Below, in pieces: positions 10,802-61,231 of a DNA stretch of 64,000 nt. How positions within the stretch are numbered: position 1 is the stretch's first letter; the number at the start of each line of letters is the position of its first letter. The translations under genes were made by a program, and so were the position numbers. A model generated the notes under the pieces. It was not told the DNA's origin, did no database searches, and saw only the letters and a list, made by a program, of their open reading frames with translations. Source of the stretch: Candidatus Omnitrophota bacterium (GTDB lineage Bacteria > Omnitrophota > Gorgyraeia > 2-02-FULL-51-18); contig CAMDWQ010000005.1 in the NCBI GenBank assembly GCA_945877765.1, forward strand, positions 604-64,603, given 5' to 3'.

Positions 10802-10869
10802 AAAATGCCCTCCGTTTAGGAGTTTACTATATTACTAGTTATTGTCAAGAGGGCACTCGCTCCGCCCAC

Positions 10870-10950: not shown

Positions 10951-10952
10951 AA

Positions 10953-12553: not shown

Positions 12554-12584
12554 ATTTATAGTGTATGTACAAAATATGTACTTG

Positions 12585-14910: not shown

Positions 14911-14966
14911 GAGGTCATTCTAACATGGGCAGCGCCGCCAAGTCATGATCGGCAGCGATTTCCTGT

Positions 14967-28241: not shown

Positions 28242-28636
28242 TTGACCTGCAGTATTCTTTTTTTGACCAGGGATACAATTTTTTCATCATATCCCAGATA
28301 GGGACAGAGACTAATTTTTACACCAGCGTATTTTTTGATTTCAGTGGTAATGATTTCGGGGATATCCGACTGGACATGCTTTCCCATTAAAATAAAATAA
28401 GGCAAAATGCGGATTTGCTTAGCCCCTTTTTTAACACAAAATTCAATCGCCTCTTGAATGGAAGGATACGTAATTTCAAGATACGCGCACACCACGCGCG
28501 AAAAACGCTTATCTTTTTGGATTTGTGAGGCGACCTTTACCATCGCTTGTTGAAAACCTTCCTGGCGGCTGCCATGGCCGACCAGAATGACAAAATATCT
28601 TTGGGGCGGTGCGGCTAGCGATCTAGATGACTTCAC
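28238..28636 (-). CDS. sirohydrochlorin cobaltochelatase, small CbiX form
   Basis: 'YFVILVGHGSR' N-terminal motif. 132 aa. Next to the cobO-like gene. Confidence 0.6.
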   Translation of the reverse strand: MKSSRSLAAPPQRYFVILVGHGSRQEGFQQAMVKVASQIQKDKRFSRVVCAYLEITYPSIQEAIEFCVKKGAKQIRILPYFILMGKHVQSDIPEIITTEIKKYAGVKISLCPYLGYDEKIVSLVKKRILQVK

Positions 28637-29378
28637 AAGACTTTTTCAATACCCAGCCGGTCGTCTTATCTTGGAGAGCGATGTAATACCACTTGTCCGT
28701 CTGGTCAATCACGCGGGCTTTAGCGCCTTCGTGAAGGACGAACGCTTTAGTCTCTTTATCAGAGGGACCGTACCGCGCGGTGACTTCTTTTTCCAATACA
28801 ACCAAAAACGGGTCTTTCGCCGAAAGCCAACGAAAATAAAAAGCGGTTCCCGTCAAAATTAATAGCAGTGTAAAAAATCCCCCAATCCCAGCCGTCATGG
28901 ATTTTGATTGATGAAAGAAAAAATTTAGAACTGATACAATAAACAAAATCACCATGATGAAAGCAAATAGCAAGGCTATCTCGTCCACCGTAACCCAATT
29001 CAGTATCCTTTGGGCGCTTGAGATAAACACATTTTCATCGCTGTCGGCAATTCGGTCCGCCAGCGTCGTTTTGAGCACCGACTTATTCCATTCCACGTCA
29101 CGATCCCGAGGGGCCAGCGCATGCGCCCTTTCATAATCCACCAGAGCGGCACCTTTGTTGCCCGCACGAAAATCAGCATTCCCTAAGTTGTAATACAACG
29201 CGGCCGTCGGTTTACCCGAGGCGGCTGATTTTCGATAGAGGGAAGCCGCTGACACATAATCTCCTGCCTGGTACTTCTCGTTGGCTTCTTGAAATAAAGA
29301 CTTTTCGCCAGAAAACGCGAGCGTCGTTGAAAAAATAAACCCCAAAAATAGTGCCGCCACGATCAATCGTCTCATCAA
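28623..29378 (-). CDS. BatE-like protein (TPR repeats + TM + C-terminal SH3b)
   Basis: Signal peptide, TPR 'YYNLGNADFRAGNKGAALVDYERA', TM segment, C-terminal 'WYYIALQDKTTGWVLK' SH3-like. Last gene of the Bat operon. Confidence 0.55.
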   Translation of the reverse strand: MMRRLIVAALFLGFIFSTTLAFSGEKSLFQEANEKYQAGDYVSAASLYRKSAASGKPTAALYYNLGNADFRAGNKGAALVDYERAHALAPRDRDVEWNKSVLKTTLADRIADSDENVFISSAQRILNWVTVDEIALLFAFIMVILFIVSVLNFFFHQSKSMTAGIGGFFTLLLILTGTAFYFRWLSAKDPFLVVLEKEVTARYGPSDKETKAFVLHEGAKARVIDQTDKWYYIALQDKTTGWVLKKSCEVI

Positions 29379-31270: not shown

Positions 31271-31284
31271 GACACCCCTTCTAA

Positions 31285-32295
31285 CTACCAATCTTTTTCG
31301 GAAGACCTTCTAGCCTGTATTCTAGAATTTTTCTGTGATCCCTGCAATTTTAAAACTTGCTGCTCCTGGTTCTCAAGCGCCCCCAGAATTTGTTCCGCGC
31401 GAATCTGAGACTCACTGCGCTCCGGGACTTCCTCTTTCGTCTGACCGCCCTCATCCATCCCAGCACCTGACCCCTTTGAATCTTTCGGCTCTTCTTCTTT
31501 GCCTTGATCCTGCTCCTGTCCTGTTTGCGCTTGCTCCTGCCCCTCTTTCTTTTCCTGGCCTTCTTTTTTCTCTTCTTCGCCCGTCGCGCCCTCACCCTCC
31601 TCCGCCTGCCCATCTTCTTGCTTTTCTTCGCCCTTCTGACCTTCCTCTCCAGCCTTCTGCCCTTCTTTCTTCTGACCCTCCGACGCGTCCTGTTCTTTCT
31701 GATTTTCTTTTTGCTCACCCTGGCCTTGGTCCTCCTTCTTATCCTGGCCGGCATCCTGCTTTTTTTGATCCGGCTGATTCTGGCCGCTAGAATCTTTCTT
31801 TTCTTCCTTCTTCTCTTGTTTCTTATCTTCCTTTTTATCTTCTTTCTTTTTGTCCTGATTTTTTTGAGCACTATTTTCTTTGGTCAGAAGCTCAAGATTG
31901 TATTTGGCATCCTGATCCTCTTTATTGAAGCGCAGCGCGTTCTTGTAGGCCTCAATCGCTTTTTCTTTTTGATTTTGCCGAAACCAGCTATTGCCGAGAT
32001 TGTAGTAAGCTTTGGATTTTAAAATGGGGTCTTGCTCACCGCTTGCCGCTTTCTCATACGCCTGGGCGGAAGACTCAAAAGCGTCTTCTTTGAAAAAAGT
32101 ATTTCCCAGATTGTAAAGCGTAAGGGTTTGGCGGGGATCCGACTTTAACGCGCCCTGATATTCCGTGCGCGCTTTGCCGAGCTCCCCTTTTTTATAAAAC
32201 TGATTTCCCTTTTCATTTTTTATCTCGGCAATAGGGCTAAAGCCGCAAAAGAAAATGGCAAGCATCAGTGTCGCCCCTACCGATGTTAGTCTCAT
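31285..32295 (-). CDS. BatC-like TPR protein with long K/E/Q-rich low-complexity tail
   Basis: Signal peptide, TPRs ('YNLGNTFFKEDAFESSAQAYEKA', 'YYNLGNSWFRQNQKEKAIEAYKNAL'), then ~150 aa of KEDKK/EGQ repeats. The KR-rich ORFs 31350..31871 and 31504..32022 are frame artefacts of this region. Confidence 0.55.
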   Translation of the reverse strand: MRLTSVGATLMLAIFFCGFSPIAEIKNEKGNQFYKKGELGKARTEYQGALKSDPRQTLTLYNLGNTFFKEDAFESSAQAYEKAASGEQDPILKSKAYYNLGNSWFRQNQKEKAIEAYKNALRFNKEDQDAKYNLELLTKENSAQKNQDKKKEDKKEDKKQEKKEEKKDSSGQNQPDQKKQDAGQDKKEDQGQGEQKENQKEQDASEGQKKEGQKAGEEGQKGEEKQEDGQAEEGEGATGEEEKKEGQEKKEGQEQAQTGQEQDQGKEEEPKDSKGSGAGMDEGGQTKEEVPERSESQIRAEQILGALENQEQQVLKLQGSQKNSRIQARRSSEKDW

Positions 32296-33281
32296 TTTTT
32301 CCTCTCTGACAAAAACATCTCTATCAAAAGAAGCAAAATGGCAATTAGCAGAAAAAATTGAAAATTCTCCTCATATTCCACGGACCACTCGCTCTTCAAA
32401 TCTTTTTGTTTCATCCCCATCATTTCGTGGACCAATCGGTCGGTCTCAAAATTTCCGCCCGAAGCGCGAAAATAGGCCCCCCGCGTGCGGCTAGCGATAT
32501 CTCTCAATAGGTTTTCGTTGAGCTTGGAGATGACCGTACGGCCGCTGCGGTCTTTTTTGCTGTCGCCGCCGGAATGCTCCGAGGGTAAAGTACCGCCGTC
32601 GTTAGTGCCAATCCCGATAGTAAAAACTCGTATCCCAGACTTCGCCGCGCGGTCAGCCGCTCCCAGCGCATCGGGCTCATGATTTTCCCCATCGGTCAGG
32701 AGTATCACAGCTTTATATTCTTTTTCTTTTTCCGCAAATGCCTGCCCTGACACAGCCAGCGCACGCGCAAGCGAAGTCCCCTGATTACTGATCAACTCCG
32801 GGCTGATCGTAGACAAAAACAATTTGACCGCGTTGTAATCCAGGGTCAGCGGGCATTGAATGACGGCATCCCCCGCAAAAGCGACGATCCCGATACGGTT
32901 TCCCTTTAGCTTCTGAATCAACTCGGTAAGTTCCAATTTTGCTTTCTCAAGGCGGCTGGGGGCGATATCCCTGGCCAACATGCTATTAGAAACATCCACC
33001 GCGATCATGACATCGATTCCTTTTCGCTCCACCCGCGTTTCTTTCTTTCGAAAATGGGGCTGCGCTAGAGCTAAAACAAGGCAAAAAATTGCCAGGACCA
33101 AAAGAATCCTTTTTAGAAAACGCACGGTAAGATTTAGCGATCCTGAAAGCGTCCGCACAAGCTCGCGATCACCAAAGCGCGACAAGGCTTTTTTTCGCCG
33201 CCAGGAGTTCAGGGCAAAAACAGCCGTGACCAGCACCAAGAGCCAAAACCAAATAAAATTTCCGGGCAAACCCCATTCCAT
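32292..33281 (-). CDS. BatB-like von Willebrand factor A protein
   Basis: Two N-terminal TMs, MIDAS 'DVSNSM', vWA fold. Confidence 0.7.
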   Translation of the reverse strand: MEWGLPGNFIWFWLLVLVTAVFALNSWRRKKALSRFGDRELVRTLSGSLNLTVRFLKRILLVLAIFCLVLALAQPHFRKKETRVERKGIDVMIAVDVSNSMLARDIAPSRLEKAKLELTELIQKLKGNRIGIVAFAGDAVIQCPLTLDYNAVKLFLSTISPELISNQGTSLARALAVSGQAFAEKEKEYKAVILLTDGENHEPDALGAADRAAKSGIRVFTIGIGTNDGGTLPSEHSGGDSKKDRSGRTVISKLNENLLRDIASRTRGAYFRASGGNFETDRLVHEMMGMKQKDLKSEWSVEYEENFQFFLLIAILLLLIEMFLSERKK

Positions 33282-33297
33282 TTATTACTCCCCACTT

Positions 33298-33364
33298 GTC
33301 ATTCCCGCGAAGGCGGGAATCAAACCCAGACACGATCCCCGATTAAAGATTTCGGGGATGACAC
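33298..33364. repeat. MITE family A copy between the batA and batB genes
   Basis: 'gtcattcccgcgaaggcgggaatcaaacccagacacgatccccgattaaagatttcggggatgacac'. Confidence 0.55.
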
Positions 33365-33373
33365 AATTAAAAA

Positions 33374-34363
33374 TTAAGGTATTTTTACCAGTAATAAATT
33401 GGTCCACGCAATCTCGATCAACAAAAAGATAAGCGCCGGCCACAAAAACAAAAAGTAATGTTCCTCGTAATGGACAAACTTCTCGACCGTAATCTCTGTT
33501 TTTTCAAGGCTGTCAATATCACGAAAAATATCCCTCAGCGACTGCTGATCCTGGGCACGGAAATATTTTCCGCCTGTCTTGGAGGCAATCTCGGACAAAA
33601 GTTTTTCATCGATTTGTGTCTGCATCTTCATCAAACGGGTTCCAAACGCGGGGTCTTTGACCGGAATATAGGCAAAACCTTCTTTCCCAACACCGACGGT
33701 ATAGACACGGATTTTAAATTGCTTTGCCAATTCAGCGGCAGTCAGAGGATCGATTTCACCGGCGTTGTTTACCCCATCCGTCAAAAGAACAATTATTTTG
33801 CTCTTGGCTTCCGAACCGCGCAGGCGATTTACGGCATTGCCCAAACCAAGACCGATCGCTGTCCCGTCTTCCACCATCCCGATCTGGATCTGATCTAAAA
33901 GCGTCAAAATCGCCTTGTGGTCAATCGTCAACGGGCACTGGGTAAAACTTTGCCCCGCAAAAATGACAAGTCCAATACGGTCATTACTTCTGCCCTCAAT
34001 AAACCGCTTCGCCTCAAGCTTCGCGGCCGTTAGACGATTATCCGGCTGAAAATCCAAAGACGCCATACTCCCCGAAATATCCAGAGCGACCACCAAATCA
34101 ACCACATGGCGGGTCGATTTCTCTTCCCCCGTGCCGGTTTGAGGCCTCATGAGAGCCAGAATAAGAAACGTCAAAGCCGCCAGTCGAAGAAGCGCCGTGA
34201 CCACACGCCGCAGACCGGTTTTTTTCCCGCCGGCAGTCTTGATAAGTTTGAGATTTGAAAACTTCAGCGCACCGTCTTTTCCGATCCAACCCAAAAGGTA
34301 AGCCAGAAAAAAAAGAATCACCGGAATAAAAAATAATAAAAATAGAGGGTCTTTAAATTTCAT
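33374..34363 (-). CDS. BatA-like von Willebrand factor A protein
   Basis: TMs, MIDAS 'LDISGSM', vWA. Confidence 0.7.
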   Translation of the reverse strand: MKFKDPLFLLFFIPVILFFLAYLLGWIGKDGALKFSNLKLIKTAGGKKTGLRRVVTALLRLAALTFLILALMRPQTGTGEEKSTRHVVDLVVALDISGSMASLDFQPDNRLTAAKLEAKRFIEGRSNDRIGLVIFAGQSFTQCPLTIDHKAILTLLDQIQIGMVEDGTAIGLGLGNAVNRLRGSEAKSKIIVLLTDGVNNAGEIDPLTAAELAKQFKIRVYTVGVGKEGFAYIPVKDPAFGTRLMKMQTQIDEKLLSEIASKTGGKYFRAQDQQSLRDIFRDIDSLEKTEITVEKFVHYEEHYFLFLWPALIFLLIEIAWTNLLLVKIP

Positions 34364-35329
34364 CTATTTCCCCTTACTATTTTTGGCGGAAGCTTGCGGC
34401 GGCGGCATCGTCAATTGAGCGAATGCCTCTAAGCGGCCTTTTAGCGTCTGGGCCAACAAACGGTCCGGCACAAAACGAGCAAACTTCACTAGATCCGTTT
34501 TATCAAAAATTTCATTGGCATGCTCCAGCGCCACAGAATCAAAAATGATTTCTTTTAGCAGAGGTTTTATCTCAACGCTGGTATGTTCCATGACATCCAG
34601 GCCATACCTTCTTTCCAAGTACCGGCGTAGAATAGTCGACAACTCACTATAGTGTTCCTTGATTCTTCCCGATGAAAGCCACTCCTTTTCCTGCAAACGT
34701 CTCAACTCAAGTAAAAGTCTCTCGCCTGCGGGCAACCGGCTCTCCATATCCTCTTTTCTTTTCTTTTGGTCCTGGATTAAAAGATAAATCAGAAGCCCTG
34801 TCAAAAGAAGCGCAATAAACCCAAGAAGCCAATCCACCAAATAACGCAGCGGCACGCCGGCAGGTCCCTTGATAGGACGGATATCCGCTTTGTCATCCTT
34901 TGTTTTTCCCACACTAATCACTCGTACCGGAATCTCCGGCGTATTAGCTTCGGCTCGCTGCCCGCCGGTATTCCAGATCACCAGCGGAATCGAGGGAATT
35001 TTAAAATCACCCACTTTGAAAATGGTTAGGCGTAGAGTCACTGTCTGCAAGACCCCGTTGCCCTTTTTGGTGACCAATGGCTTATCAATGGACCTGATCT
35101 CAAAGGGCGCCACGAGCGTTTTGGCGGAAATCGGTTCAATCAAAACCCCTGGGGGAAAGTGAGCCTGGATAACCAACCGGACTTCGTCGCCGACATGAAT
35201 CACCGAAGGAAATACCCGAGCGCTAAGGCCGCCCACGCGCCCTGATGACTCTTCCTCCGTCTGTGCCGCCAATAGAGGCCGCATCAAGAAAACAGCGGCA
35301 ACCATCAGAAGGATTAAAGCTTTTTTCAA
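34364..35329 (-). CDS. membrane protein of the MoxR-DUF58-Bat operon (DUF4381-like position), hypothetical
   Basis: Signal peptide, central TM 'WLLGFIALLLTGLLIYLLI', helical C-terminus. Sits between the DUF58 and batA genes, as in Bat operons. Confidence 0.45.
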   Translation of the reverse strand: MKKALILLMVAAVFLMRPLLAAQTEEESSGRVGGLSARVFPSVIHVGDEVRLVIQAHFPPGVLIEPISAKTLVAPFEIRSIDKPLVTKKGNGVLQTVTLRLTIFKVGDFKIPSIPLVIWNTGGQRAEANTPEIPVRVISVGKTKDDKADIRPIKGPAGVPLRYLVDWLLGFIALLLTGLLIYLLIQDQKKRKEDMESRLPAGERLLLELRRLQEKEWLSSGRIKEHYSELSTILRRYLERRYGLDVMEHTSVEIKPLLKEIIFDSVALEHANEIFDKTDLVKFARFVPDRLLAQTLKGRLEAFAQLTMPPPQASAKNSKGK

Positions 35330-36207
35330 CGGTTAATCCTCCGAATTCTTTTCTTAAAAAACTGAATCAATGGATCGATGTAGGAGGACCCGGCATTGAT
35401 GTTGATAAAATCAATTCCAATCGAAGAGAAAAATTTTTCACGATTTTCCTTGCGCGAAACCCCTTCTTTTTCAAAACGTTTGCGAAAATCAGCGCCAGGA
35501 GCCAGTGAAAAAACTTCGCCGGTCTCCGCGTCTTCCAGATCAATCGAAGCGCCAAATGAGGGGAATGCTTTCTCCGACGGATCTTCGACAACGATGGCGG
35601 TCACGTCATGTTTTTTGTGGGCAATTTTCAAAAGATTGTCATAGTTCTCTGACATAAAATCCGAGACCAGAAATACCGTCGAACGCTTGGTCACGACATT
35701 ATTTAAAAGTTTGAGCGCGCAGTTGATATCGGTACGCTTTCGTTTGGGGCTAAAAGAAAGGATTTCACGAATCACACGCAGCACGTGGGAGCGGCCTTTT
35801 TTAGGGGGGATATATTTTTCTACTTCATCGGTAAATAAAATGAGGCCTACCCGGTCTTTGTTTTTGATGGCAGAGAATGCCAGAAGCGCGCAAATTTCAG
35901 CAATGGTTTCGGATTTGCTTTTGCCATGTGTGCCGTATTGGCCTGAGGAGCTTAGATCTACCAGAAACATTACGCTAAGCTCGCGCTCCTCGACGAATTT
36001 CTTCGTATAAGGCGCTCCCATCCGAGCCGTGACATTCCAATCGATGTCGCGGATATCGTCCTGTGCGTCATATTCACGCACCTCGCTAAACTCCATCCCG
36101 CGGCCTTTAAAGACACTATGATATTCGCCCGCAAAGATGGTATTCACCAGCTTTGAGGTGCTAATTTCAATAAAGCGGACTTTAGCCAGCAGTTCTTTGG
36201 ATATCAT
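35326..36207 (-). CDS. DUF58 domain protein (MoxR partner, vWA-like)
   Basis: 'DIRDIDWNVTARMGAPYTKKFVEERELSVMFLVDLSSS' DUF58 signature. Confidence 0.7.
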   Translation of the reverse strand: MISKELLAKVRFIEISTSKLVNTIFAGEYHSVFKGRGMEFSEVREYDAQDDIRDIDWNVTARMGAPYTKKFVEERELSVMFLVDLSSSGQYGTHGKSKSETIAEICALLAFSAIKNKDRVGLILFTDEVEKYIPPKKGRSHVLRVIREILSFSPKRKRTDINCALKLLNNVVTKRSTVFLVSDFMSENYDNLLKIAHKKHDVTAIVVEDPSEKAFPSFGASIDLEDAETGEVFSLAPGADFRKRFEKEGVSRKENREKFFSSIGIDFININAGSSYIDPLIQFFKKRIRRINR

Positions 36208-47418: not shown

Positions 47419-47991
47419 ATGCCTAGGCCATCAAGAATGATTTACGAGGAAGCGTTTTATCATGTATTTAACCGTGGAGTTAATAAAATGCCTATATTTT
47501 TTGATGAATTAGATAATAAAATATTTATAAAAATATTGCGTCATGAAGCATTGGAAATGAATGTTCGTGTGTTTGCTTATTGTCTAATGCCGAACCATTA
47601 TCATTTATTCATCCAAACTAAAAATGCTAATTTGAATATATTCATGCAAAAATTGGCAGGTCGCTATGTCCAGTTAGTTAATTTCCGGCATAGCCGGGTT
47701 GGCGCATTGTTTCAAGGTAGATATCAAAATCGTCTGGTGGATATCGACTCGTACGCACTGAGGTTAACTAGGTATATTCATCTGAATCCGGTGATCGCTG
47801 GTTACGCCAAAAGGCCGCAGGACTATCCATGGTCCAGTTACAACAGTTATCGAGACAACCAAAATTCTTGGATATCGACTGACTTACCGCTAGAGCTTTT
47901 AGGTGGAAAAAATAAAGCTTCGTTTAGGCAATTTGAGAAGTTCCATGAAACGGTGCCAGAGGGGTCTGACCCCTATGGTACCGTGGTTTAG
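47419..47991 (+). CDS. REP-associated tyrosine transposase (RAYT, IS200/IS605-like Y1 transposase)
   Basis: HuH motif 'HYHLF'. 'YIHLNPV' family signature. 190 aa. The 3' end reads through another REP copy (47953..47982). Confidence 0.75.
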   Translation: MPRPSRMIYEEAFYHVFNRGVNKMPIFFDELDNKIFIKILRHEALEMNVRVFAYCLMPNHYHLFIQTKNANLNIFMQKLAGRYVQLVNFRHSRVGALFQGRYQNRLVDIDSYALRLTRYIHLNPVIAGYAKRPQDYPWSSYNSYRDNQNSWISTDLPLELLGGKNKASFRQFEKFHETVPEGSDPYGTVV

Positions 47992-50900
47992 GCGGCCTGG
48001 AGAAATTGGCGCTGCTGACTGGCGAGAAAACGCAGGGCCGTGCTGACGTCGACCTGGGTGAGCGCCCGCAAAGCCAATCGTGCGGCTAGTTGAAGCAACG
48101 CCCGGCCCAAGAGGACTTCCGTGAGTTCTTGGGTTTCGGGACGCAGTCCTGAAAGCGTCGCCCAGGCATCGTCAAACGGCTGAGGACGGTTTTTGGGATC
48201 CTTCAGACGGCCCAAAATGATGGCTAACTGCATGAAGCTAAATGATAACACGTCGCCATCGGCCACTTCTTTCACCGGCACGCGAAGCTCTTCTTGGAGA
48301 GCGGGCCTCTGCGGCGGACCAACACGCACCATCTCGGCTCCCACCAAGTCCTCGGGGGCAGATTCCAGAAAGAGACTACTATCCCAGCGGATCCAAGTAG
48401 CGGCATTGACGCCGACGGGAACCAAATAGACGTTTCGTCCCCATTCTTTCGATTTTATCGTATGTAAATACAGGATAAACGCTTCAAGGTACGCAGGACT
48501 TGCCATGTCCAGCCAGGCGGTGTTGATTTCTAAAATCACAGGCTTGGTGTGATCCACAATCACCGAATCCAAGAGCGAGTTGACGCGCCCTTCCACCGAA
48601 GAGGAAAGACTACTCAGCGCACTGATACTGTCCGCACCACGGCCACGACTGCGAATCAACTGCTCATACTGCCCGCGAGTTACCGTCAGAATAGATTTAC
48701 TGTAGCCACGAAGCCAAAGCTCGGCTTCCCCCTTCTTATTCATCCTGACATTTAATAGGGATGAATCTCGACCCCTAGCTGTCTCTACGGGGAAATCCGC
48801 CTCATTTTTTAATTGTGCTATTTCCCAGGTAGAAACCTTAAAAAGGTTCCTATTTTTTCGAATCAAACGGCGTAGATAGCTTTGTGACCGCGTAAGCGAA
48901 GACGCTGCACGGGCTCGAGGCCGACTGCTGGCCGACGACGCATTTTGCAAGCGTGATCGTGAAACATAAGGCTCGATAATAGATAAGCCGGCCAGTCGGG
49001 CGGCAACTGACGGAGAGACAAAAATAACAGTCTGCGTGAATTCATATGTTCCCCGCGGTGGCACTTTTATATAAAAAAACATCGCATCAGGCTTATTTCT
49101 GGTTAATTCTAATTCCTGGTCTCCGATATTCAGAATGCGCGTGGTAACGGTTGCATAATCATCCGTTAATGTAAACGTCCTATCAATCGTAAAATCTTGA
49201 TACTGGCGAGTCTCCAGCTCTAAATTGGAATTCATTGAAGTGGAAAGCTCCTCAAGGCGCATCTTAACAAATGCTGTGCCGTTGACACGGTTAGCGTCTA
49301 TCATCTTCCATTGCCCATTAAGCAGAGTTGGATATGCCCAAAAATGTCCATCCAATGTTTGGCCATTAACAGCGGTAGTATTCCAAAAAACAGGCATTGT
49401 CGCTCGAGCTGGGATCCGGAGCGAGCTCCTTCCCGATAGACTTATAAGCTTAATCCAATCTCTCCCATCACGCTTTTCAACCGGCAATACTCTCTTAGCT
49501 ATCGCAGATAAAATATTTCTTGCTAACTCACTATCTGTTTTTAGTGAGAGCTGCGTCGAAGATGCTTCTGGATTATTATCTGTTGGATTTGAAAACGATA
49601 AAAATTTGTGCATTTTTTTACCCTCTCTTTGAAAATCAAATTCAAGAGAGACAATCATTTGTTTTCCCCGCTGTCCGTGAGGGATACGAATGGTCAAGAG
49701 CCCATCCGTAAAATCGAAACTATCAAAAACGTATACATTGTTTGTAGATCCTGTAGCGCGTACGCCATGAACAAGCTCTCTAAAATTAGTGAAACGGCCA
49801 ATAGCTGCGATCAGCTCGTCACTAGTTATGCTCTGGACTTCATCATCAACCCATGCCGCCAACCGCGCAGCAACCGGAACCGCTGGAACCTGATAAGTCG
49901 CTTCACTTTGAAAATAACTGGTAGGCGCCGTCGGATTCATTTTGGAACCATAGGCAACCGCAAACAGATTCCCTTCTTTGGACTCATACATTTTGTCGCC
50001 ACTATCCATCGCGATTACTTTAAATCTAAATATGCCAGGTCGCTTAGCTTTTAGATTTAGAACATAGCGAAAGATGCCATCCTGGGAAAAATTCGGATCC
50101 CGAACCATATCAAATTCCGACTCAACCTCACGCTCATCCTCAGTATATTTCAACGTCACCTTCACAGAAGCAGCTGCTTCGGCCACATACGCTTCAATTA
50201 AAAATGGGGTTATCTCTGTATTGGCCGTATCCGTAAACCGATGCATTTCCTCGCGATCGTTTTCACTGTCGGGACTTGTGCGAACGATAAGATCTTCTTT
50301 TTTTTTCTCTAGATCTTTTTCTGAAAGCTCTTCCCTCTTGGCGAGCAATTTCTTAATCAGTGCTACGGCGCGTGTTACTTCCACGGGCACCGCCTGGCCA
50401 TCTTCGGTCACCGGATTTCCCTGTAAAGCGGCTCTGAGATTTTCAACAGTGATAGGTAACTTGTTTTCCCATTGGCCGGATTTTTTCCCCGCTACGTTTA
50501 TTTTGTTCTCCGGTCCATACGCTCCGAGGTCAAGCCAGTTGGGAACAAACATGAGCGAATCCGACATAAAGCTAAGCTCAAGCAATGCCTCTTGCACAGC
50601 GGAAGTCAATTCGCCTGACTCGGCTATGGAAGGGTCCAACCCCGTCATTTCAGGAAATTGCGCTCGGGCGATTTCTAAAAATGCTCTTCTTGTGCCTGTG
50701 TCGGTTTCATTCCAGTCACTGCGCATGGACTCTGAGTCATGAAGACTATAAGTCCTAAAAGCAACCGGCTGTGAGGAACGTGGATCATGAACATTTTCAC
50801 CATTCTCACTGGGCATTTTTCCCCACATGGAGCATACATAATCAAAAGCACCTAGATGAGGCTTTTTGAGCTGTTCCGACGTAAAACGCGCCAATGTCTC

Positions 50901-53900
50901 AAAGATCACCGACGTCCCCGCTTTTTTGGCCCGATCCAGAAGCTCTGAAAAAAGTTCCTCTCCCGGACCGTAATCGTAGGCAGCGACACGCAAGTTATCG
51001 TCGGCCTGGGGACCCTCGCCTTCGAAAAGATACTGAACAATTCCATTATCTATATCTTTATCAACCAAATCTCTTTTTCCATAACGATGGTCTGTCAGCC
51101 GGACATAATTCCACACCGGCCCCTGCCCGTAAACTTTTGGCTCCACCACATCATCCACACGGACCCATGGCGCCTCCAATCCTTGATACTTGTCATCTGC
51201 TTTTTTAGCCTCGCGCGCGACGTACATCATCGCGTACTCGGCCAAATGATCTTCGTCTGGATAAGCCAAGTCCACGAGCCTTTTGACCAAGGGATTGGCG
51301 GAAATTAATTCCGATGTTTTCAGCGCGTGTGCAAAAATCGCGGTAACTTTGGCGGCGGTCTGCTTCTTAATATTCTCCGCCTCAACTGGCTTTTGACTAG
51401 CCTCGGCCTTGGCGGCATCAACCATTGATCGCACTTGGTCATAGACCCCTAGACTCCCAAGAGTAAACTGACTTTCACCATCTTCCATATACAAATACGC
51501 CAAATAAAACCCAAGCACATGATCCAAGCGTATCGTGGTCGCCATTTTCTGGTAGTACTCAAAAAGCTTGATCATGTACGGCAGAGTATCCGGATGAGAC
51601 CAATCATAAGCAAAAAACTGCCAGTATTGACCAATGGGGTGCTTTTCCTCCGGTAGAGAGCCGTGCGTAAAAGGCCTTTGGTAACCATTTTCTTTTTTAA
51701 GACCGAAAATCTGGGGATTCATCCACACGTCAGCCCCGCCTCGGGCGAAAGGAATATCCATGGCGACTTGAATGCCATTTTCCTTAGCAACCGCCGCATA
51801 CTGATCAAATTGATCCCGCGCGACAAACTGGATAAACGAGCGAAGTTCAATCTCGCCTGCATATTTATTTTTCAAGCGCGCAATTTCATCCGCATTTCTA
51901 TCACTAATGAGTTCCTCCCAAGTTCTCCAATCCCAGCCATTAAATGGATTTTTACTTAGATGTTCTTCTTTGAGAATAAGAAATAGCATATGATCCGGTA
52001 GCCAGTCCGCGTGGTTGGCCTTAAACTCATCAAATTTTTGCTTGGTCTGGCTCTCTTTAAACCCAGCCGAATTTTTTAAAGAATCCCAAATAATTTCAAG
52101 GGCTTCTTTATTAAGCGCAATCACTTGGTCATGCTGAATCGTTTCGCTGTCGCTGAGGCTTTGAATTTGCTGAGCATGCGCTGTAACAAACTCGTCATAG
52201 GCTCTAAGATCCAGATCGCCGTTGAAAGATTCTTTTAGGGCGGCTACCAACATCGGAACGCTGATATAACGAAGGTCAATCGCTCGAGAACTATCCTCCG
52301 AATACGGCGAATTAAATGCCGCCGACCATATCAGTGGAAGGATCTGATGCATCGTCAATCCCATTTCTTTAAAAATAGGGATCATTTGAATAGCGGTCTG
52401 GAAATTTCCTATTCCCCAATCACCCTTGTGACGCAGATGGTGAAACGGCATGAAAGACCCTGTGATTCTCTTGCCGTATTCGACGGGAGAAATAAAATCT
52501 TTCGCTAGGGGCCTATCAACAACCTCAATCGCCGCCAAGCGCGCGCCATCAGCTTTCACCAATCCCGAATCGCGCAAGATGTCTTCAGGTTTAATGGCAG
52601 AGCCCATCATCATCAAATGCGCGCCTGTAACCCAAGGATAATCCCGACGAATTTTTTGGATTTGCTCAACAGCCTTGCGTCGACTAAATTTTTTGAAATT
52701 GTCATGTTTTTCAGTAGTATCTTTCTTCCACTCCGCTTCGTATTCACGCACAAGCCTAAAAGCCTCTTCATTTTTTCTCCAATTAATTCCCGTCAAATAC
52801 ATCCAAAATCGGATTCCCCATGGAGAAGCAAAAGCGGTAATACCCACATGAACTTTGATGTCTTTTGTGCGATCGTCCTCGTGAATTGCTTCCAAGTACT
52901 GTTCGAATGGCTCCCATAAGATTGGGGGCTGCGTAAATATGCCCTGAACATTTTTATGAGCCAGTCTTTCAGCGGTTTCCGCTGTAGGATATAAATTTGG
53001 ATTTGCAGCAGCATATAGTGAGATATTGTTAGCAGAGGGATTCATCAAATCTCTTGCCATTGAAGCTACGCTTTTCGATGAAACGGGCCATATTTCTGAG
53101 CCTGCCAAAAGATTTTTAAATAAACGTTGAGCTAACCCTCCTCCCGTGACTACAAATAATCCAATAATGTTTTGGTTTTCAGCGGCTAAGGAGATTACAG
53201 CTTCAAGACGCTTTATCAAACTATTTCTTCGACGCGCATTCGCCGCTATAGTCACAATGGTATTGAATTTGCTTCCGGCGGCCAACTCGAGAGTATCATC
53301 CGTTTTCACCAATCGCTTTCTGTAATTTTTAAAAACCTTCCAAAAGTCTAAGTTTCCGTTCATCTGGCTTTGATAAAATACATATAGATCTCTATCTTTC
53401 CACCAGGATTCAATTCCTTTTATGAAGAAAACGTGCTTAAGAATCGAGTCAACCACATGTGCCCATAAAAATTCAAGAGCTTGAAAACGTGCCGAGTAAG
53501 GTAGGTCTGTTAAAGTAAGTGCATACACGCCGAGTTTTTTTAATCGGTCCGGGCTACTGCTATTGAGCCCATTAGAACTCTCGACGGTGATAATAAAGCT
53601 ACTGTTTGCCTCCGCCAACCGCGCGCCCTCATCGCGAGCTTCCCTATGCTCGCGTCGCCATAGATTTCGCCTTGCTTTGTCGGTAGCCCTATTAAAATGA
53701 GGCCCCCCACCTTTCGATTTAGCCCCTACAAGTAATTCCGGCTCCCCTGCCAAAAATTTGCTCGCCATTTCGCGTGCAGAAATACGAGCTTCCTCTTTCA
53801 AATCTGATCCTGGTTGCTCTAATATTTTCAGTGTATTAAAAATGTTTATTTTTCCAGAATCATCAGCGCGCTCAAAAACTCGTTCGAGCATAATCAAAGC

Positions 53901-55961
53901 TATATGTTCTTGGGTGCTAGTCCGTTTTTCGGCATCGGGGGCAATACCTTTTACTGACTTGATTAGACACTCCACAGCTCTAGCCATCAAATCAGGCTCT
54001 AAAGCAGCAAAAAATATACTAATGCTCTTTCGATGGCTGGCCACAAAACCCCGCTGATCAAGATGCCCAACAATAAGCTCTATCGGTTTCAAAATTCTTC
54101 CGGAAAGGTTCTGCCGGGCTTTTACGTCCCGCTGCAATCGAGTCAATCTCCTTAAGGCTATGCCTCCATCCTTTTTATTTTGTATGTTACGAAGTTCGTC
54201 CTTTACCTCTATGTAGAGGGCAGAATATACGTTATCTTCTTTCTGCCGTTCCATACTTTTAGCAGCTAACCTCGCCCCCCGAGGGACCATTGTCCCCAAC
54301 CGCGCAGCAACAAGCGTTGTAACCAGCTGACCCTCAAAAACCTGCTGAGCACCCGGCACCGTTGCCAAGGTGGAGTCATTGTTCGAGGCGGTCTTGGTTT
54401 CCTGCTCGGATCCTGGGGCTAGCTGATCTAAGAGTATTTTTTCATATTTCTCTTTACTGGTTTCCTTGAGGATTCTCGGCACCACCACAACATAGGAAAT
54501 ACCGCGCGCCTGCAAAAGCTCTTTTAAATGCTCGGTATGAAACCCGCCGCAGACTAAAATGGCTTTTTTCTCCTGGTGGCGGTCCATTTGCTCCAACATG
54601 TTTTCAAGAAATGCCTTATCGCGCAGGAAGGTCAGGTCATAAAATTGCAGCGCCTTTTGGAAATCAACCCCCAACCGCTCATCCCACATCACCACGTCTT
54701 CCGCGGGAGACCCCGTAGCCATGATTTTTAAATTAAAAAAACCGGCAATATTTAGAAAGCTATAGTCGCTTGGGTTTTTTTGGATCTGGGTAAAATCGTC
54801 CTTGGAAAGCTCCAAGTTAAAAAGCCGCCTCAATACTTCCGAGGCACGGCAAGCGGCCAAAAGCTCTTTTTCATCACTTGTGCGCGCCAAAAGATTAAAG
54901 ACAATCTTTTCCAGCCCTTCTTTTTCTTTTAATACTTCGGCGGCGCTAAAAGCCCTCGACCTCATGACATATTCAATGCTTTTGGTCAGCTGGGGATAAA
55001 AAGAGGGGTTTGTATTTTTTTCTTTTAAGAGTGAGTAAAACGCGTCCTGCACTTGCGGATCCAACTTCGACCCATTCACTTTCATTTGCTCGGCAATTTC
55101 TACAAGGGGCTGACGCTCGCTGACTGAAAGTGAGGCGATTAATTGCGCCTGCTCGCTCTGGGCTTTTTCAAAATTGATTTGCTTCTCAAGCGTACGGATA
55201 TCTTGCATTTGGGCTAAGTGAGGAAATAATTCGAAAGACACGTTTAAGTTTTTTGCTTGAGCCGCTAGTGCGTCGAAATAGTCCGCGGAAGAGCTCTCTT
55301 GATTTAAAAAAGCATCCCGCCGGGCGTCCATTTGTTGAAGCAGAGGATTCCAAACCCTGGCGGTGAGAGTTTTTTTGGCGCGCCGGAGCCGGTCCAGAGA
55401 CTCATTTAAAAAAGGCCTGTCTTTTTTAAGATCGCGGTAAAGAGCCAAACCCTCCCAATAAAGTTTTTTATTTTCCACGCCCCATAAAGAAAATGTTTTG
55501 TCTGAGGTGAGATCTAGATAATCGGGTCCTTGAATCAAACCCCGGCGTAAAAAATCACGAGCAACTTGTTGTCTTTTTTCCGGCGTGGCAAAACGGCGCA
55601 GATAAGAAAGAGAATTGTTCCCCGTGCCGGCTTCTAAATAGACATGCTGGATCGATTCGCTGCTTAAAATCGTATCGATGGCTTTGGCGATGTTGAGACC
55701 GGCGGATTCATTGGTGTGTGCGTCGCGAATCAAAACGATTGATCGGTCCGCGTGCGGCGCTGTATATTTTTCTTCCATCAAGGCAACCGAGTCAGGAAGT
55801 GTGAATGTCAACTGCGGCGGAAACATCACTTGGCTAATTTCTGCGGGAGAGGCAAGCGCAAACTCTTGCCCAGCAAACGCCACCAGCAAAACCACAGAAA
55901 TGGTTTTGAGATAAAATTTAGACTTGTTGGGTCGTATATTTAATAGTCTTAATAAAGGCAA
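47988..55961 (-). CDS. giant modular protein (2657 aa): signal/anchor, an N-module shared with the first giant ORF, a GH77 (4-alpha-glucanotransferase/amylomaltase)-like module and other modules, separated by AARLA-type junction motifs
   Basis: Single 7974-nt ORF. N-terminus 'MPLLRLLNIRPNKSKFYLKTISVVLLVAFAGQEFALASPAE' parallels the N-terminus of ORF 14967..25130. GH77-like signatures 'WGIGNFQTAIQMIPIFKEMGLTMHQILPL', 'MDIPFARGGADVWMNPQIF', 'GQYWQFFAYDW' and 'IRLDHVLGF' at about 51200..52470. Confidence 0.7.
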   Translation of the reverse strand: MPLLRLLNIRPNKSKFYLKTISVVLLVAFAGQEFALASPAEISQVMFPPQLTFTLPDSVALMEEKYTAPHADRSIVLIRDAHTNESAGLNIAKAIDTILSSESIQHVYLEAGTGNNSLSYLRRFATPEKRQQVARDFLRRGLIQGPDYLDLTSDKTFSLWGVENKKLYWEGLALYRDLKKDRPFLNESLDRLRRAKKTLTARVWNPLLQQMDARRDAFLNQESSSADYFDALAAQAKNLNVSFELFPHLAQMQDIRTLEKQINFEKAQSEQAQLIASLSVSERQPLVEIAEQMKVNGSKLDPQVQDAFYSLLKEKNTNPSFYPQLTKSIEYVMRSRAFSAAEVLKEKEGLEKIVFNLLARTSDEKELLAACRASEVLRRLFNLELSKDDFTQIQKNPSDYSFLNIAGFFNLKIMATGSPAEDVVMWDERLGVDFQKALQFYDLTFLRDKAFLENMLEQMDRHQEKKAILVCGGFHTEHLKELLQARGISYVVVVPRILKETSKEKYEKILLDQLAPGSEQETKTASNNDSTLATVPGAQQVFEGQLVTTLVAARLGTMVPRGARLAAKSMERQKEDNVYSALYIEVKDELRNIQNKKDGGIALRRLTRLQRDVKARQNLSGRILKPIELIVGHLDQRGFVASHRKSISIFFAALEPDLMARAVECLIKSVKGIAPDAEKRTSTQEHIALIMLERVFERADDSGKINIFNTLKILEQPGSDLKEEARISAREMASKFLAGEPELLVGAKSKGGGPHFNRATDKARRNLWRREHREARDEGARLAEANSSFIITVESSNGLNSSSPDRLKKLGVYALTLTDLPYSARFQALEFLWAHVVDSILKHVFFIKGIESWWKDRDLYVFYQSQMNGNLDFWKVFKNYRKRLVKTDDTLELAAGSKFNTIVTIAANARRRNSLIKRLEAVISLAAENQNIIGLFVVTGGGLAQRLFKNLLAGSEIWPVSSKSVASMARDLMNPSANNISLYAAANPNLYPTAETAERLAHKNVQGIFTQPPILWEPFEQYLEAIHEDDRTKDIKVHVGITAFASPWGIRFWMYLTGINWRKNEEAFRLVREYEAEWKKDTTEKHDNFKKFSRRKAVEQIQKIRRDYPWVTGAHLMMMGSAIKPEDILRDSGLVKADGARLAAIEVVDRPLAKDFISPVEYGKRITGSFMPFHHLRHKGDWGIGNFQTAIQMIPIFKEMGLTMHQILPLIWSAAFNSPYSEDSSRAIDLRYISVPMLVAALKESFNGDLDLRAYDEFVTAHAQQIQSLSDSETIQHDQVIALNKEALEIIWDSLKNSAGFKESQTKQKFDEFKANHADWLPDHMLFLILKEEHLSKNPFNGWDWRTWEELISDRNADEIARLKNKYAGEIELRSFIQFVARDQFDQYAAVAKENGIQVAMDIPFARGGADVWMNPQIFGLKKENGYQRPFTHGSLPEEKHPIGQYWQFFAYDWSHPDTLPYMIKLFEYYQKMATTIRLDHVLGFYLAYLYMEDGESQFTLGSLGVYDQVRSMVDAAKAEASQKPVEAENIKKQTAAKVTAIFAHALKTSELISANPLVKRLVDLAYPDEDHLAEYAMMYVAREAKKADDKYQGLEAPWVRVDDVVEPKVYGQGPVWNYVRLTDHRYGKRDLVDKDIDNGIVQYLFEGEGPQADDNLRVAAYDYGPGEELFSELLDRAKKAGTSVIFETLARFTSEQLKKPHLGAFDYVCSMWGKMPSENGENVHDPRSSQPVAFRTYSLHDSESMRSDWNETDTGTRRAFLEIARAQFPEMTGLDPSIAESGELTSAVQEALLELSFMSDSLMFVPNWLDLGAYGPENKINVAGKKSGQWENKLPITVENLRAALQGNPVTEDGQAVPVEVTRAVALIKKLLAKREELSEKDLEKKKEDLIVRTSPDSENDREEMHRFTDTANTEITPFLIEAYVAEAAASVKVTLKYTEDEREVESEFDMVRDPNFSQDGIFRYVLNLKAKRPGIFRFKVIAMDSGDKMYESKEGNLFAVAYGSKMNPTAPTSYFQSEATYQVPAVPVAARLAAWVDDEVQSITSDELIAAIGRFTNFRELVHGVRATGSTNNVYVFDSFDFTDGLLTIRIPHGQRGKQMIVSLEFDFQREGKKMHKFLSFSNPTDNNPEASSTQLSLKTDSELARNILSAIAKRVLPVEKRDGRDWIKLISLSGRSSLRIPARATMPVFWNTTAVNGQTLDGHFWAYPTLLNGQWKMIDANRVNGTAFVKMRLEELSTSMNSNLELETRQYQDFTIDRTFTLTDDYATVTTRILNIGDQELELTRNKPDAMFFYIKVPPRGTYEFTQTVIFVSPSVAARLAGLSIIEPYVSRSRLQNASSASSRPRARAASSLTRSQSYLRRLIRKNRNLFKVSTWEIAQLKNEADFPVETARGRDSSLLNVRMNKKGEAELWLRGYSKSILTVTRGQYEQLIRSRGRGADSISALSSLSSSVEGRVNSLLDSVIVDHTKPVILEINTAWLDMASPAYLEAFILYLHTIKSKEWGRNVYLVPVGVNAATWIRWDSSLFLESAPEDLVGAEMVRVGPPQRPALQEELRVPVKEVADGDVLSFSFMQLAIILGRLKDPKNRPQPFDDAWATLSGLRPETQELTEVLLGRALLQLAARLALRALTQVDVSTALRFLASQQRQFLQAA

Positions 55962-56078
55962 ACAGCACGCCCCTTGGTAAAAAAATAGTGCCCGCCGGAT
56001 CGACGAATAGTTAAGGAATTATGCCTGATGTTTGGCTAATTATCAAATTATTAAGTCGATTAACTAATTAGCTCTAGA

Positions 56079-59163: not shown

Positions 59164-59848
59164 CCTCGATAAAACGGTATCCCGATCCCCTTACTGTTTC
59201 AATGCTGTCGCGGTACTTTCCCAACTTTTGACGAATACTTTTTACATGCGCATCCACTGAACGATCCACCACAAACGACTCCCCTTGCCATACATGATCC
59301 AAAATTTTATCGCGTGAAAAAACCTTCCCCTGATTTTCCATTAAGAATGCCAGAATATTAAACTCAAGCTTGGTCAAAACCACGGGCTTTGCCTGGACAG
59401 TCACGCGATGGCGCTCGCGATCAAGGACAATGCCGGCCGCCTTTAGAAGAACTGCCCCCTCTTTCTCGATGCTGCGTTGTCCGCGAAGGATATTTTTGAC
59501 GCGCGCCAGGAGCACTTTCACGCTGAAAGGTTTTGAAATGTAATCAGAGGCGCCCAGCTCAAGACCGACCACCTGATCAATTTCGCTGCCCTTGGCAGTG
59601 AGCATTATCACCGGCGTCGAGCGAGTTCGGCTGTCGGATTTAAGTAGGCGGCATACTTCCAAGCCATCGATCCCAGGGAGCATTAAATCCAGGAGAATCA
59701 AATCAGGTTTTTTGGCACGCGCAAGGTCAAGCCCCTGCTCCCCTGTATGGGCACAAAGCACTTGATAGCCTTCTTTTTCGAGATTGTACTGCAGGAGCTT
59801 GGCGATATCCAATTCATCGTCAATGACGAGAATTTGATGTTTGGGCAT
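59144..59848 (-). CDS. OmpR/PhoB-family response regulator
   Basis: REC 'ILVIDDE...DLILLDLMLPGIDG' plus a winged-helix C-terminus. Confidence 0.85.
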   Translation of the reverse strand: MPKHQILVIDDELDIAKLLQYNLEKEGYQVLCAHTGEQGLDLARAKKPDLILLDLMLPGIDGLEVCRLLKSDSRTRSTPVIMLTAKGSEIDQVVGLELGASDYISKPFSVKVLLARVKNILRGQRSIEKEGAVLLKAAGIVLDRERHRVTVQAKPVVLTKLEFNILAFLMENQGKVFSRDKILDHVWQGESFVVDRSVDAHVKSIRQKLGKYRDSIETVRGSGYRFIEDGRHVR

Positions 59849-60549
59849 TATTTTTTCTTTGGGGTACCGAGAATTTCTTTCACCTTCTCTTTAATCTTGT
59901 CGTGGATTTCATCCACGCTTTTATCGGCTTCCACGGCTTCAAAATTAAATTCCTTAGAGAGTTTGTCATATTCTTTGATCAGGGCGGACTGGTAGTTGGC
60001 AAAGCTGTCAAAAAGATCCTGACCCATATGCAAATCCATACCCGCTTCCCAATAGTTCATACCGCCAGCCTCAATGACTCTTGGAATTAAATCTTCGGTT
60101 TTAATTTTAAGATAAATCACTAGGTGCGGAATGATCGCAAAACTAAAAAGGTTCCTGATCCACTGCGCATCCGCGTCGCGCACCGCATCCCGGACAAACG
60201 CCGTATAAATATAACGGTCCGTCAGGACAATATGCCCAGATTTCAACGCCGGAATGATTTGATTTTCAAAACGATCGGCAAAATCGGTAGCATACAGCAA
60301 CGTAAACGTCATGCGATCCATGATGTTTCCGCTTTTGGCCAGCTCAATTGATTTTTGCATGAGATTCGAACGCGCCCAGCCTGTCTCGAGCACAGCGTAG
60401 CCCTGCACTTCCAGCCAGTTTTTTAAAAGCGCGACCTGCGTCGAACGGCCGGTGCCGTCCGTGCCTTCAATCGCGATTAATTTACCCTTGATCTGGTAGG
60501 GCTTAAGATAGGCTAAATTTTCGCCAAAATACTTTGGGTCTTCGGGCAT
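59848..60549 (-). CDS. thymidylate-kinase-like P-loop protein with degenerate Walker A (GTDGTGRST, Lys->Arg)
   Basis: 'IAIEGTDGTGRSTQ', 'TDRYIYTAF' (DRY motif). Paralogue of the next gene. Confidence 0.55.
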   Translation of the reverse strand: MPEDPKYFGENLAYLKPYQIKGKLIAIEGTDGTGRSTQVALLKNWLEVQGYAVLETGWARSNLMQKSIELAKSGNIMDRMTFTLLYATDFADRFENQIIPALKSGHIVLTDRYIYTAFVRDAVRDADAQWIRNLFSFAIIPHLVIYLKIKTEDLIPRVIEAGGMNYWEAGMDLHMGQDLFDSFANYQSALIKEYDKLSKEFNFEAVEADKSVDEIHDKIKEKVKEILGTPKKK

Positions 60550-61231
60550 AAATCGTCCTTTTTTTCAGATATCCCTTCAAATTCTCTTTTACCTTGCCGC
60601 GTACGATTTCCTGCTGGTCGTGAATCTCTAGCGTGGCATCGATGGAGGTCAGAGAAAACTCACCGACCATTTTTTTGTATTCTTCCATGATCTTGCCTTG
60701 AAAAATTTTAAATGATTCCTTGGTATCCTTGGAAAGCTCAAGATCCATCCCCGCCTCGTGAAACTTGATCTGCGCGCGGTTGGTAAGAATGCGCTCGCAG
60801 GCGGTCTGAATCGGCACATCGAAATAAAAGCTAATATCGGGCTTGACCGCAAAATTGTAAAGATTGCGAACCCACTGAGGACTGACGCCGCGCACCGTAT
60901 CGCGCGCAAACGCCGTGTAGGCATAGCGGTCCGCCAGCACAATCATTCCCGCTTTTAGCGGAGGAATAATCTGATAATTTAAGCGGTCAGCAAAATCCGT
61001 CGCATGCAAGAGGCTGAAAGTGGTTGGCGTGAGAATATTTTTCTTTTTCCCGTCGCGCGTGGTTTCTTTGACGAGGTCTGAGCTGTTCCATTCCGTAAAA
61101 AAAACAGAATAGCCTTCTGATTCCAGCCATTTTTTTAAAAGCGCAACTTGCGTGCTCTTCCCCGAACCGTCGACACCTTCGACGATGAAAAGCTTTCCGG
61201 GATATCCATGTTTTTTATCAAATTGGGGCAT
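60503..61231 (-). CDS. thymidylate-kinase-like protein (canonical P-loop EGVDGSGKST)
   Basis: 'FIVEGVDGSGKSTQ', 'ADRYAYTAF'. Possible 47-nt overlap with the upstream paralogue. Confidence 0.6.
   Translation of the reverse strand: MPQFDKKHGYPGKLFIVEGVDGSGKSTQVALLKKWLESEGYSVFFTEWNSSDLVKETTRDGKKKNILTPTTFSLLHATDFADRLNYQIIPPLKAGMIVLADRYAYTAFARDTVRGVSPQWVRNLYNFAVKPDISFYFDVPIQTACERILTNRAQIKFHEAGMDLELSKDTKESFKIFQGKIMEEYKKMVGEFSLTSIDATLEIHDQQEIVRGKVKENLKGYLKKRTIYARRPKVFWRKFSLS

Follow-up and report, generated by a model that had tools for sequence, protein, structure and literature searches.

A giant modular protein of Candidatus Omnitrophota carries a GH77 cassette between recurring pentapeptide sites and may be a self-processing precursor

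The giant open reading frame (ORF) G2 lies in a 64 kb stretch of contig CAMDWQ010000005.1 of the Candidatus Omnitrophota assembly GCA_945877765.1 (64,000 nt in all, hereafter the window), and encodes a modular protein in which a GH77 amylomaltase-type domain is one of several cassettes bounded by a recurring pentapeptide. A second paralogous giant ORF had been proposed here by a first-pass annotation made from the sequence alone, and it is intact at 47988..55961, starting with TTG and encoding 2,657 residues followed by a stop codon; this gene, its paralogue G1 and all features given for the two are on the minus strand. The TTG occupies the same start position as in the homologues P0002 and P0005, and a Shine-Dalgarno-like site, AAGGGG, lies approximately 9 nt 5′ of it (about 55971-55976). 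A promoter-like site (TTGATA-17-CATAAT, 10 of 12 matches; 56018..56046), which is a consensus match only, is found approximately 57 nt 5′ of G2, and the number of promoter-like sites around the gene equals the shuffle expectation. The metagenome-type source leaves room for G2 being an assembly or annotation artefact, such as a chimeric contig or fused neighbour genes, as does a near-identical contig from another metagenome-assembled genome (MAG) on which the gene is called as two pieces. This explanation is extremely improbable, as the reading frame is unbroken over 7,974 nt and the same arrangement of N-terminal module, cassettes and C-terminal module is found in thousands of cluster representatives and in dozens of independent MAGs. 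The near-identical contig (L001; GCA_947444795.1, CANFBX010000091.1, 5.2 kb) encodes a protein that is 97% identical to residues ~293-1110 of G2, indicating that near-identical strains are present in public data; the division of its gene into two pieces is probably due to a frameshift or an assembly error.

The protein begins with a signal-peptide-like leader (residues 1-38; 55848..55961) that consists of a basic n-region, a 12-13-residue hydrophobic core (TISVVLLVAFAG) and the sequence QEFALA/SP, and the leader pattern ..F..Q[ED]x.FA.P[ED] is kept across the family of related proteins described below. The only other strongly hydrophobic stretch of G2 spans the pentapeptide at residue 2320. 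Following the leader is the N-module (residues ~56-520; 54402..55796), which resembles hydrolases of the TIKI/EreA/ChaN/TraB fold and contains a helical insertion of ~290 residues. Pentapeptide sites at residues 562, 779, 1139, 2031 and 2320 then split the protein into an N-terminal block, five cassettes and a tail. The first three sites read GARLA (residues 562-566, 54264..54278; residues 779-783, 53613..53627; residues 1139-1143, 52533..52547) and the last two AARLA (residues 2031-2035, 49857..49871; residues 2320-2324, 48990..49004), and a near-copy, AARLG, is located beside the first (54294..54308). Cassette 1 (residues 567-778; 53628..54263) has weak similarity to P0139 and L015. Cassette 3 (residues 1144-2030; 49872..52532) holds a complete GH77 domain together with a C-terminal extension of ~190 residues. 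No Pfam match was obtained in a scan of cassettes 1, 2, 4 and 5, which show similarity within the family only, and a PDB sequence search with cassettes 2 (residues 784-1138; 52548..53612) and 4 (residues 2036-2319; 49005..49856) likewise gave no match. A conserved alpha/beta C-terminal module (residues 2446-2657; 47991..48626) completes the protein and ends ...QFLQAA.

The paralogue G1 (14967..25130; 3,387 residues) has a leader, an N-module, nine ARLA sites, an M23 peptidase cassette and a divergent C-terminal module. BLASTP aligned residues 74-513 of G2 with residues 127-626 of G1, with 36% identity over G2 residues 74-460 (E=3e-58) and a second match at E=2e-11; identity over residues 462-513 was 46%. 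The shared N-module suggested by the first-pass annotation therefore holds on proper alignment. Beyond the N-module nothing else is shared by G1 and G2 at BLASTP significance; a divergent C-terminal module was found by profile comparison to be common to both proteins.

Related proteins were sought in public sequence data. Word-index homology searches returned 3 and 6 matches, and it was an exhaustive profile search with the N-module that revealed the family, giving 8,389 cluster representatives at E<=1e-3 and 3,829 at E<=1e-30. Among the best 150 of the 8,389, the N-module begins within ~50 residues of the N-terminus and the proteins reach up to ~7,000 residues. A scan of one genome per species detected 42 related loci, nearly all in Candidatus Omnitrophota MAGs, with three to five paralogues in several genomes; some of the records are labelled 'uncultured Planctomycetia'. 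This family of modular giants is very large and almost restricted to Omnitrophota, and its members have a fixed frame made up of the leader, an N-module of ~470 residues, variable and unrelated cassettes, and a C-terminal module of ~220 residues. Pfam domains in the cargo of 11 other members included adenylate kinase, hexokinase, PEPCK, FBPase, NAD-dependent epimerase, aldose 1-epimerase, HAD, PALP and a 6-phosphogluconolactonase/GlcN6P-isomerase-type domain, as well as CsrA, response-regulator receiver, FHA and HEAT domains. The GH77 domain of G2 fits the sugar-metabolism theme of this cargo. On one Omnitrophota MAG contig (L004) two members are arranged head-to-tail (1704..9155 and 9962..15364). 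The upstream member, which has ~2,400 residues once a spurious 5′ extension is discounted, contains nine GARLA sites, a cassette that by eye is UDP-glucose-pyrophosphorylase-like, and the ending ...AFASAA, while the downstream member has no canonical [AG]ARLA in the 1,801 residues up to the end of the locus and a single site by the relaxed pattern given below.

The pentapeptide, which was not remarked on in the first-pass annotation (nor were the TIKI-type character of the N-module, the conserved C-terminal module and the Omnitrophota origin), has the general form (G/A)(A/S)R(L/M)(A/S) in the family, where GARLA is the most frequent version, followed by AARLA, GARMA and GARLS. In a six-frame translation of the window, [AG]ARLA occurs 15 times, in every case in the reading frame of G1 or G2 and in none of the six frames outside the two giants, and 15 of the 16 matches to the relaxed pattern [GA][AS]R[LM][AST] are also in the giants. 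Shuffling the G1 and G2 sequences 2,000 times gave on average 0.04 copies of [AG]ARLA and never more than 2, compared to the 15 observed. The enrichment extends to the family, with 477 copies of [AG]ARLA in 152 proteins versus 4.5 expected, and almost all copies of the motif in the six frames of 33 Omnitrophota loci are within an ORF that opens with the N-module. The codons used at the 15 sites of the window vary synonymously (GCN, CGN/AGG, TTR/CTN), indicating that selection acts on the peptide rather than on the DNA; an origin of the motif at the DNA level, as a recombination or RNA signal, is ruled out by this variation, which was seen at all 15 sites. A sortase or exosortase sorting signal was also ruled out, as the motif is internal and repeated and is not followed by a transmembrane segment and basic tail. 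The first site of a protein is usually found just behind the N-module. Sequences flanking the motif are not conserved, and the flanks of 824 sites were less hydrophobic than random positions (0.28 versus 0.317, p~1e-12). In an AF2 model of residues 1-570 of G2, the first site is in a stretch with a predicted local distance difference test score of ~30.

The relationship between the motif and the cassettes was investigated using BLASTP high-scoring segment pairs between members (outside the N-module, identity at most 60%). Only 122 of 892 segment pairs cross a motif site, compared to 380 +/- 33 for random placement of the sites (minimum 283 in 200 trials), and regions of homology thus end at the motif. 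The closest relative of G2, L025, illustrates this, as the N-modules of the two proteins are 62% identical and the GH77 cassette is the sole cassette that they share. Residues 1143-2034 of G2 and residues 2293-3192 of L025 are 51% identical over 913 residues; the L025 stretch is flanked by ARLA at 2279 and 3189, with the motif at the same cassette boundary as the fourth site of G2, and is placed elsewhere in the protein than that of G2. In P0015, a 249-residue cassette bounded exactly by GARLS and GARLT corresponds to one adenylate kinase, which starts 17 residues past the site; E. coli Adk was the query in this comparison. The proposal in the first-pass annotation of a cassette-exchange family is supported by these data, and because the homology blocks end at the motif, it is given a physical boundary.

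The GH77 assignment had originally been made from short sequence strings at ~51200-52470, all of which are present (WGIGNF..QILPL, DIPFARGGADVW, GQYWQFFAYDW and IRLDHVLGF), and it is confirmed by a match of PF02446 to residues 1176-1836 (E=2.1e-59; 202.1 bits versus a cut-off of 25; profile positions 6-460 of 465). The range first given covered the N-terminal half of the domain, the full extent of which is 50454..52436. GH77 chains in the PDB align to G2 up to the nucleophile (best match 1tz7, E=1e-18, phmmer). The NCBIfam malQ equivalog models matched below their cut-offs (TIGR00217, 131.6 versus 205.65; NF011081, 179.1 versus 556), so the module is a member of GH77 but not a curated MalQ equivalog. 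Catalytic residues were located by aligning the G2 cassette with L025, two more GH77 sequences from Omnitrophota, four GH77 proteins that stand alone, and Thermus amylomaltase. The catalytic nucleophile is D1480 (IRLDH; 51522..51524), identified with both phmmer against 1tz7 and MAFFT and corresponding to Thermus D293. The acid/base catalyst, described in the first-pass annotation as not obvious because no EDLG motif could be seen, is present as E1688 in the sequence IFETLA (50898..50900); it aligns with the Glu of EDLG in P0155-P0158 and with Thermus E340, the Glu being kept and the neighbouring Asp replaced by Thr. The transition-state-stabilising Asp of the HD motif is D1742 (SLHDS; 50736..50738; MAFFT), the counterpart of Thermus D395. 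E1688 is ~200 residues downstream of the nucleophile, past an insertion of ~185 residues that follows the nucleophile strand (residues 1497-1680; 50922..51473) and is common to G2, L025, P0153 and the stand-alone 688-residue GH77 protein P0155.

The module was earlier thought to be possibly divergent or non-catalytic; a non-catalytic nature is not supported, as the Asp/Glu/Asp catalytic residues were all found. A decayed, non-catalytic and glucan-binding remnant would account for the altered EDLG, for the insertion behind the nucleophile strand and for the NCBIfam malQ score below the equivalog cut-off. We consider this highly improbable, given that G2, L025 and P0153 all keep the three catalytic residues (nucleophile Asp, acid/base Glu and transition-state Asp), that the same insertion is found in P0155, which retains EDLG, and that the match covers nearly the whole Pfam profile. 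As all three catalytic carboxylates are present, the module most likely has 4-alpha-glucanotransferase activity, probably in the disproportionation of alpha-1,4-glucans (maltodextrin or glycogen). It resembles the GH77/MalQ/DPE1 enzymes (Aquifex 1tz7, Thermus 1cwy) in its full-length Pfam match, its catalytic carboxylates and its signature blocks SPY, GQxW, DxP...ADVW, RLDH and HD. It differs from them in being one cassette inside a 2,657-residue protein, in the EDLG to ETLA change, and in having the ~185-residue insertion and a C-terminal extension that L025 and P0153 also have in conserved form. Taken alone, the GH77 module is ordinary, but the frame that carries it is not. A partial Candidatus Omnitrophota protein of 1,532 residues (P0154, NCBI) combines alpha-amylase, hGDE-central and GH77 domains behind a hydrophobic leader (..VLIIAFLAQDIVWAHPD..) similar to that of G2; on reading its sequence no DAHTN-type N-module was seen, which suggests that related yet distinct frames exist for fusions of glucan enzymes.

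The N-module was compared with the TIKI superfamily, whose defining features are a core of parallel beta-sheet and a catalytic 2His/2Glu set (PMC6254334). A parallel beta-sheet core flanked by helices is present in the N-module, and a corresponding set of residues was identified by residue identity and spacing, except that the first acid is Asp instead of Glu. The candidate active site consists of D80 and H82 in DAHTN (55710..55724), which form the first acid/His pair, E110 in YLEAG (55626..55640), and a second catalytic-type His directly behind a beta-strand, H475 in GGFHT (54534..54548); all four residues are invariant in an alignment of 25 sequences. In RRSP the catalytic residues are E3900, H3902, E3930 and H4030, and in Bcr135 the corresponding pair is H85/E113 (PMC6254334); the spacing of 28 residues between H82 and E110 of G2 is the same as that of H3902/E3930 and H85/E113. 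Curated models do not recognise the domain, with no NCBIfam match and no Pfam model at threshold; PF04187 reached 15.5 bits versus a cut-off of 27.7 (E=0.018), in the GGxH region only. Since D80, H82, E110 and H475 match the TIKI set and are invariant, the N-module is very probably an active hydrolase of the superfamily that includes the site-specific endopeptidases Tiki1 and RRSP. Compared to the known members (Tiki1/2, RRSP of MARTX, TraB/PrgY, erythromycin esterases, ChaN and HopBA1), it is distinguished by its first acid, by its helical insertion, and by being always N-terminal in giant modular proteins.

The explanation we favour, with a likelihood a little above even, is that G2 is a polyprotein-like precursor which is cut at the pentapeptide, probably by its own TIKI-type N-module. 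In this view a protease would recognise the pentapeptide and, in the simplest case, cut it at R-(L/M)↓(A/S). The likeliest candidate for this protease would be the TIKI-type N-module that every member carries, working in cis or on sister copies of the protein, and the GH77 enzyme and the remaining cassettes would be set free as separate proteins. Extended to the phylum, the proposal is that Omnitrophota make part of their enzyme repertoire as self-processing polyproteins, among them glycogen and sugar enzymes such as the GH77 of G2 and, in relatives, hexokinase, adenylate kinase, PEPCK and FBPase, with a TIKI-type endopeptidase cutting (G/A)AR(L/M)↓(A/S) and with cassettes being exchanged between an N-terminal protease and a C-terminal module that are both fixed; this broader version is put forward tentatively, at somewhat less than an even chance.

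The architecture, the motif statistics, the fold and the catalytic residues are observed, whereas cleavage, the protease responsible, the scissile bond and the cellular compartment are inferred; for cleavage the evidence is indirect and consists of the motif statistics, the position of the motif at cassette borders in an exposed setting, and the hydrolase encoded in the same protein. Several observations weigh against processing. Of 135 long members, 11 (~8%) lack even the relaxed motif and have only a looser form, xxRM[ASG]; variants of this form are carried by members that are poor in the canonical motif. The motif-less members still keep the catalytic residues, and comparing the loss of the motif with the loss of the active site was therefore uninformative. 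The motif is also not exclusively a linker element, as a sixth AARLA of G2 (residue 2626; 48072..48086), like equivalent copies elsewhere, is within a structured helix of the C-terminal module and is probably not a linker site. Finally, the combination of a signal-like leader with the ATP-dependent, cytoplasmic-type cargo of relatives (hexokinase, adenylate kinase, PEPCK) is a topological puzzle; the leader might tether the protein to the membrane while the cargo stays in the cytoplasm, or the protein might be genuinely exported or be delivered into a cell of a host or prey organism.

The copy in the folded helix, and the fact that cutting is deduced, would also fit uncleaved multi-enzyme scaffolds, membrane-tethered or secreted, in which one long polypeptide kept the enzymes together and the pentapeptide served as a hinge or as a docking epitope, for example for the C-terminal module or a chaperone; a 2026 preprint on 'multi-enzyme metabolic cluster' giants of Omnitrophota does not invoke processing (bioRxiv 10.64898/2026.06.07.730766). 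We regard an uncleaved scaffold as rather unlikely. An exact pentapeptide is rarely kept in unprocessed linkers, whereas here it is kept across proteins with N-modules that are only ~30% identical, and each protein with the motif also has a hydrolase-type module whose catalytic set is intact. Furthermore, the paralogues of one genome prefer the same variant of the motif while the preferred variant differs among genomes, a pattern that fits a recognition site.

The use of a single variant throughout a genome is equally compatible with one trans-acting protease, encoded elsewhere in the genome or supplied by a host or prey cell. The N-module would then have another role, as an esterase, in binding of haem or another ligand, or in anchoring and export, and proteins of the TIKI fold do have diverse activities; the superfamily also takes in esterases and a haem-binding protein. 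This possibility is judged improbable, considering that the motif-bearing ORFs in the loci examined all begin with their own N-module and that no protease gene is consistently adjacent to them. The neighbours of G2 in the window are ordinary housekeeping genes, and a dedicated protease gene was not found among them.

Omnitrophota characteristically have giant multi-domain ORFs. West-Roberts et al. (bioRxiv 10.1101/2023.11.21.568195) described giants of this phylum, of the Archaeovorin and Dockerin types, speculated that they are cleaved by C39 or S8 domains, and reported that missing information on cleavage points prevented the proteins from being split for structure prediction and analysis. 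The 2026 preprint (June 2026) describes giants of at least 10,000 residues with a sugar-metabolism module and a signal-peptide/transmembrane topology, and term searches of its text gave no cleavage, linkers, motif, GH77 or TIKI-type domains. Giant ORFs are described in general terms only by Seymour et al. 2023. The TIKI-type N-module and the pentapeptide are unmentioned in the texts of the 2023 and 2026 preprints by term searches, the C-terminal module not being among the terms. A published description of the pentapeptide, of the N-module as TIKI-type or of the C-terminal module was not found; literature searches for GARLA and AARLA gave surnames only, and one for bacterial metabolic polyproteins gave nothing. 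G2 and its relatives share with the giants of both preprints the phylum and an N-terminal signal or transmembrane segment, and the relatives also have many unrelated enzyme domains, with an emphasis on sugar metabolism, on one very long polypeptide. G2 differs in size, having 2.7 thousand residues compared to at least 10,000 in the 2026 preprint and tens of thousands in that of 2023. In comparison with class 1 of the 2026 preprint, G2 has one recognisable enzyme and four unannotated cassettes, whereas its relatives have many enzymes.

Among better known systems, the MARTX toxins are similar in that conserved N- and C-terminal regions bracket an array of cargo that varies among paralogues or strains, and in that one of their effectors, RRSP, has the TIKI fold. 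In MARTX toxins, autoprocessing frees the cargo by cutting after Leu in the linkers between domains. Membership of G1 and G2 in this group was rejected, as Peptidase_C80 and RTX/glycine-rich repeats were not found in either protein (Pfam and NCBIfam, E<=0.1). The cargo of G2 and its relatives differs from that of MARTX in consisting of metabolic enzymes rather than cytotoxins, and the leader is N-terminal and signal-like. Viral polyproteins, the gingipain (RgpA/Kgp) precursors and Mycoplasma adhesin precursors also encode several units in one ORF, with a recognition sequence at the borders of the units and the protease within the same precursor. In contrast to these, the family described here is chromosomal, has thousands of members, carries housekeeping-type cargo and would use a TIKI-type protease.

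The G2 family offers a candidate cleavage motif, a candidate co-encoded protease module and a rule for splitting the cassettes in silico, making whether and where the giants of Omnitrophota are processed a directly testable question. Confirmation of cleavage would mean that bacteria use polyprotein expression for ordinary metabolic enzymes, and the TIKI superfamily would gain a large new clade of processing proteases. If the proposal is true, a virus-like expression strategy would be in use in thousands of chromosomal genes, and would supply the missing cleavage points of the giants of this phylum. Even without cleavage, the frame of N-module, motif and C-terminal module is an undescribed organising principle of at least 3,800 protein clusters (E<=1e-30).

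The C-terminal module, an alpha/beta domain conserved in the family, ends in ...Q(A/S)A. Its last helix often has the sequence ..Q(G/A)ARLAx(R/K)MxEQ(A/S)A-COOH (residues 2640-2657 of G2; columns 301-317 of alignment A5), in which the copy of the motif is 8 residues from the invariant C-terminal Ala; other members have FRLM or SMMR in this place. This C-terminal copy might mimic a product, serve as an auto-inhibitory tail or form a degron-like end.

Within G1, several of the ARLA sites between residues 1512 and 2470 are paired with a second repeated linker peptide, ...(R)xEGLxExxxSQMSRTDTGS..., which occurs three to four times, and two of the 'cassettes' between sites are merely 24 and 30 residues long. 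Hydrophobic stretches that are absent from G2 were noted at residues ~1416-1439 (by scan) and ~690-760 (by eye). A 157-residue cassette of G1 (residues 2893-3049; 15984..16454) contains the sequence QGIHMAPS, which by eye is like the HPr active-site motif (GLHARPA); the cassette had no Pfam match at E<=0.05.

Between G1 and G2, a run of genes on the minus strand (28623..36207) includes a TPR/SH3 protein and BatD (PF13584); further ORFs of ~320-330 residues in the run may, as a guess, be of Bat/MoxR type, and a link between the run and the giants was not found. The 3′ end of G2 is directly adjoined by a mobile element, in which an IS200-like Y1 transposase gene on the plus strand (47419..47991; PF01797, E=8.5e-10) converges with G2, the two overlapping by 4 nt at the stop codon of G2. 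A hairpin resembling a terminator is located at 47300-47326. On the other side of G2, two adjoining and overlapping ORFs of 233 and 242 residues on the minus strand (59848..61231) have by eye a thymidylate-kinase-type P-loop (GxDGxGKST) and appear to be paralogous to one another.

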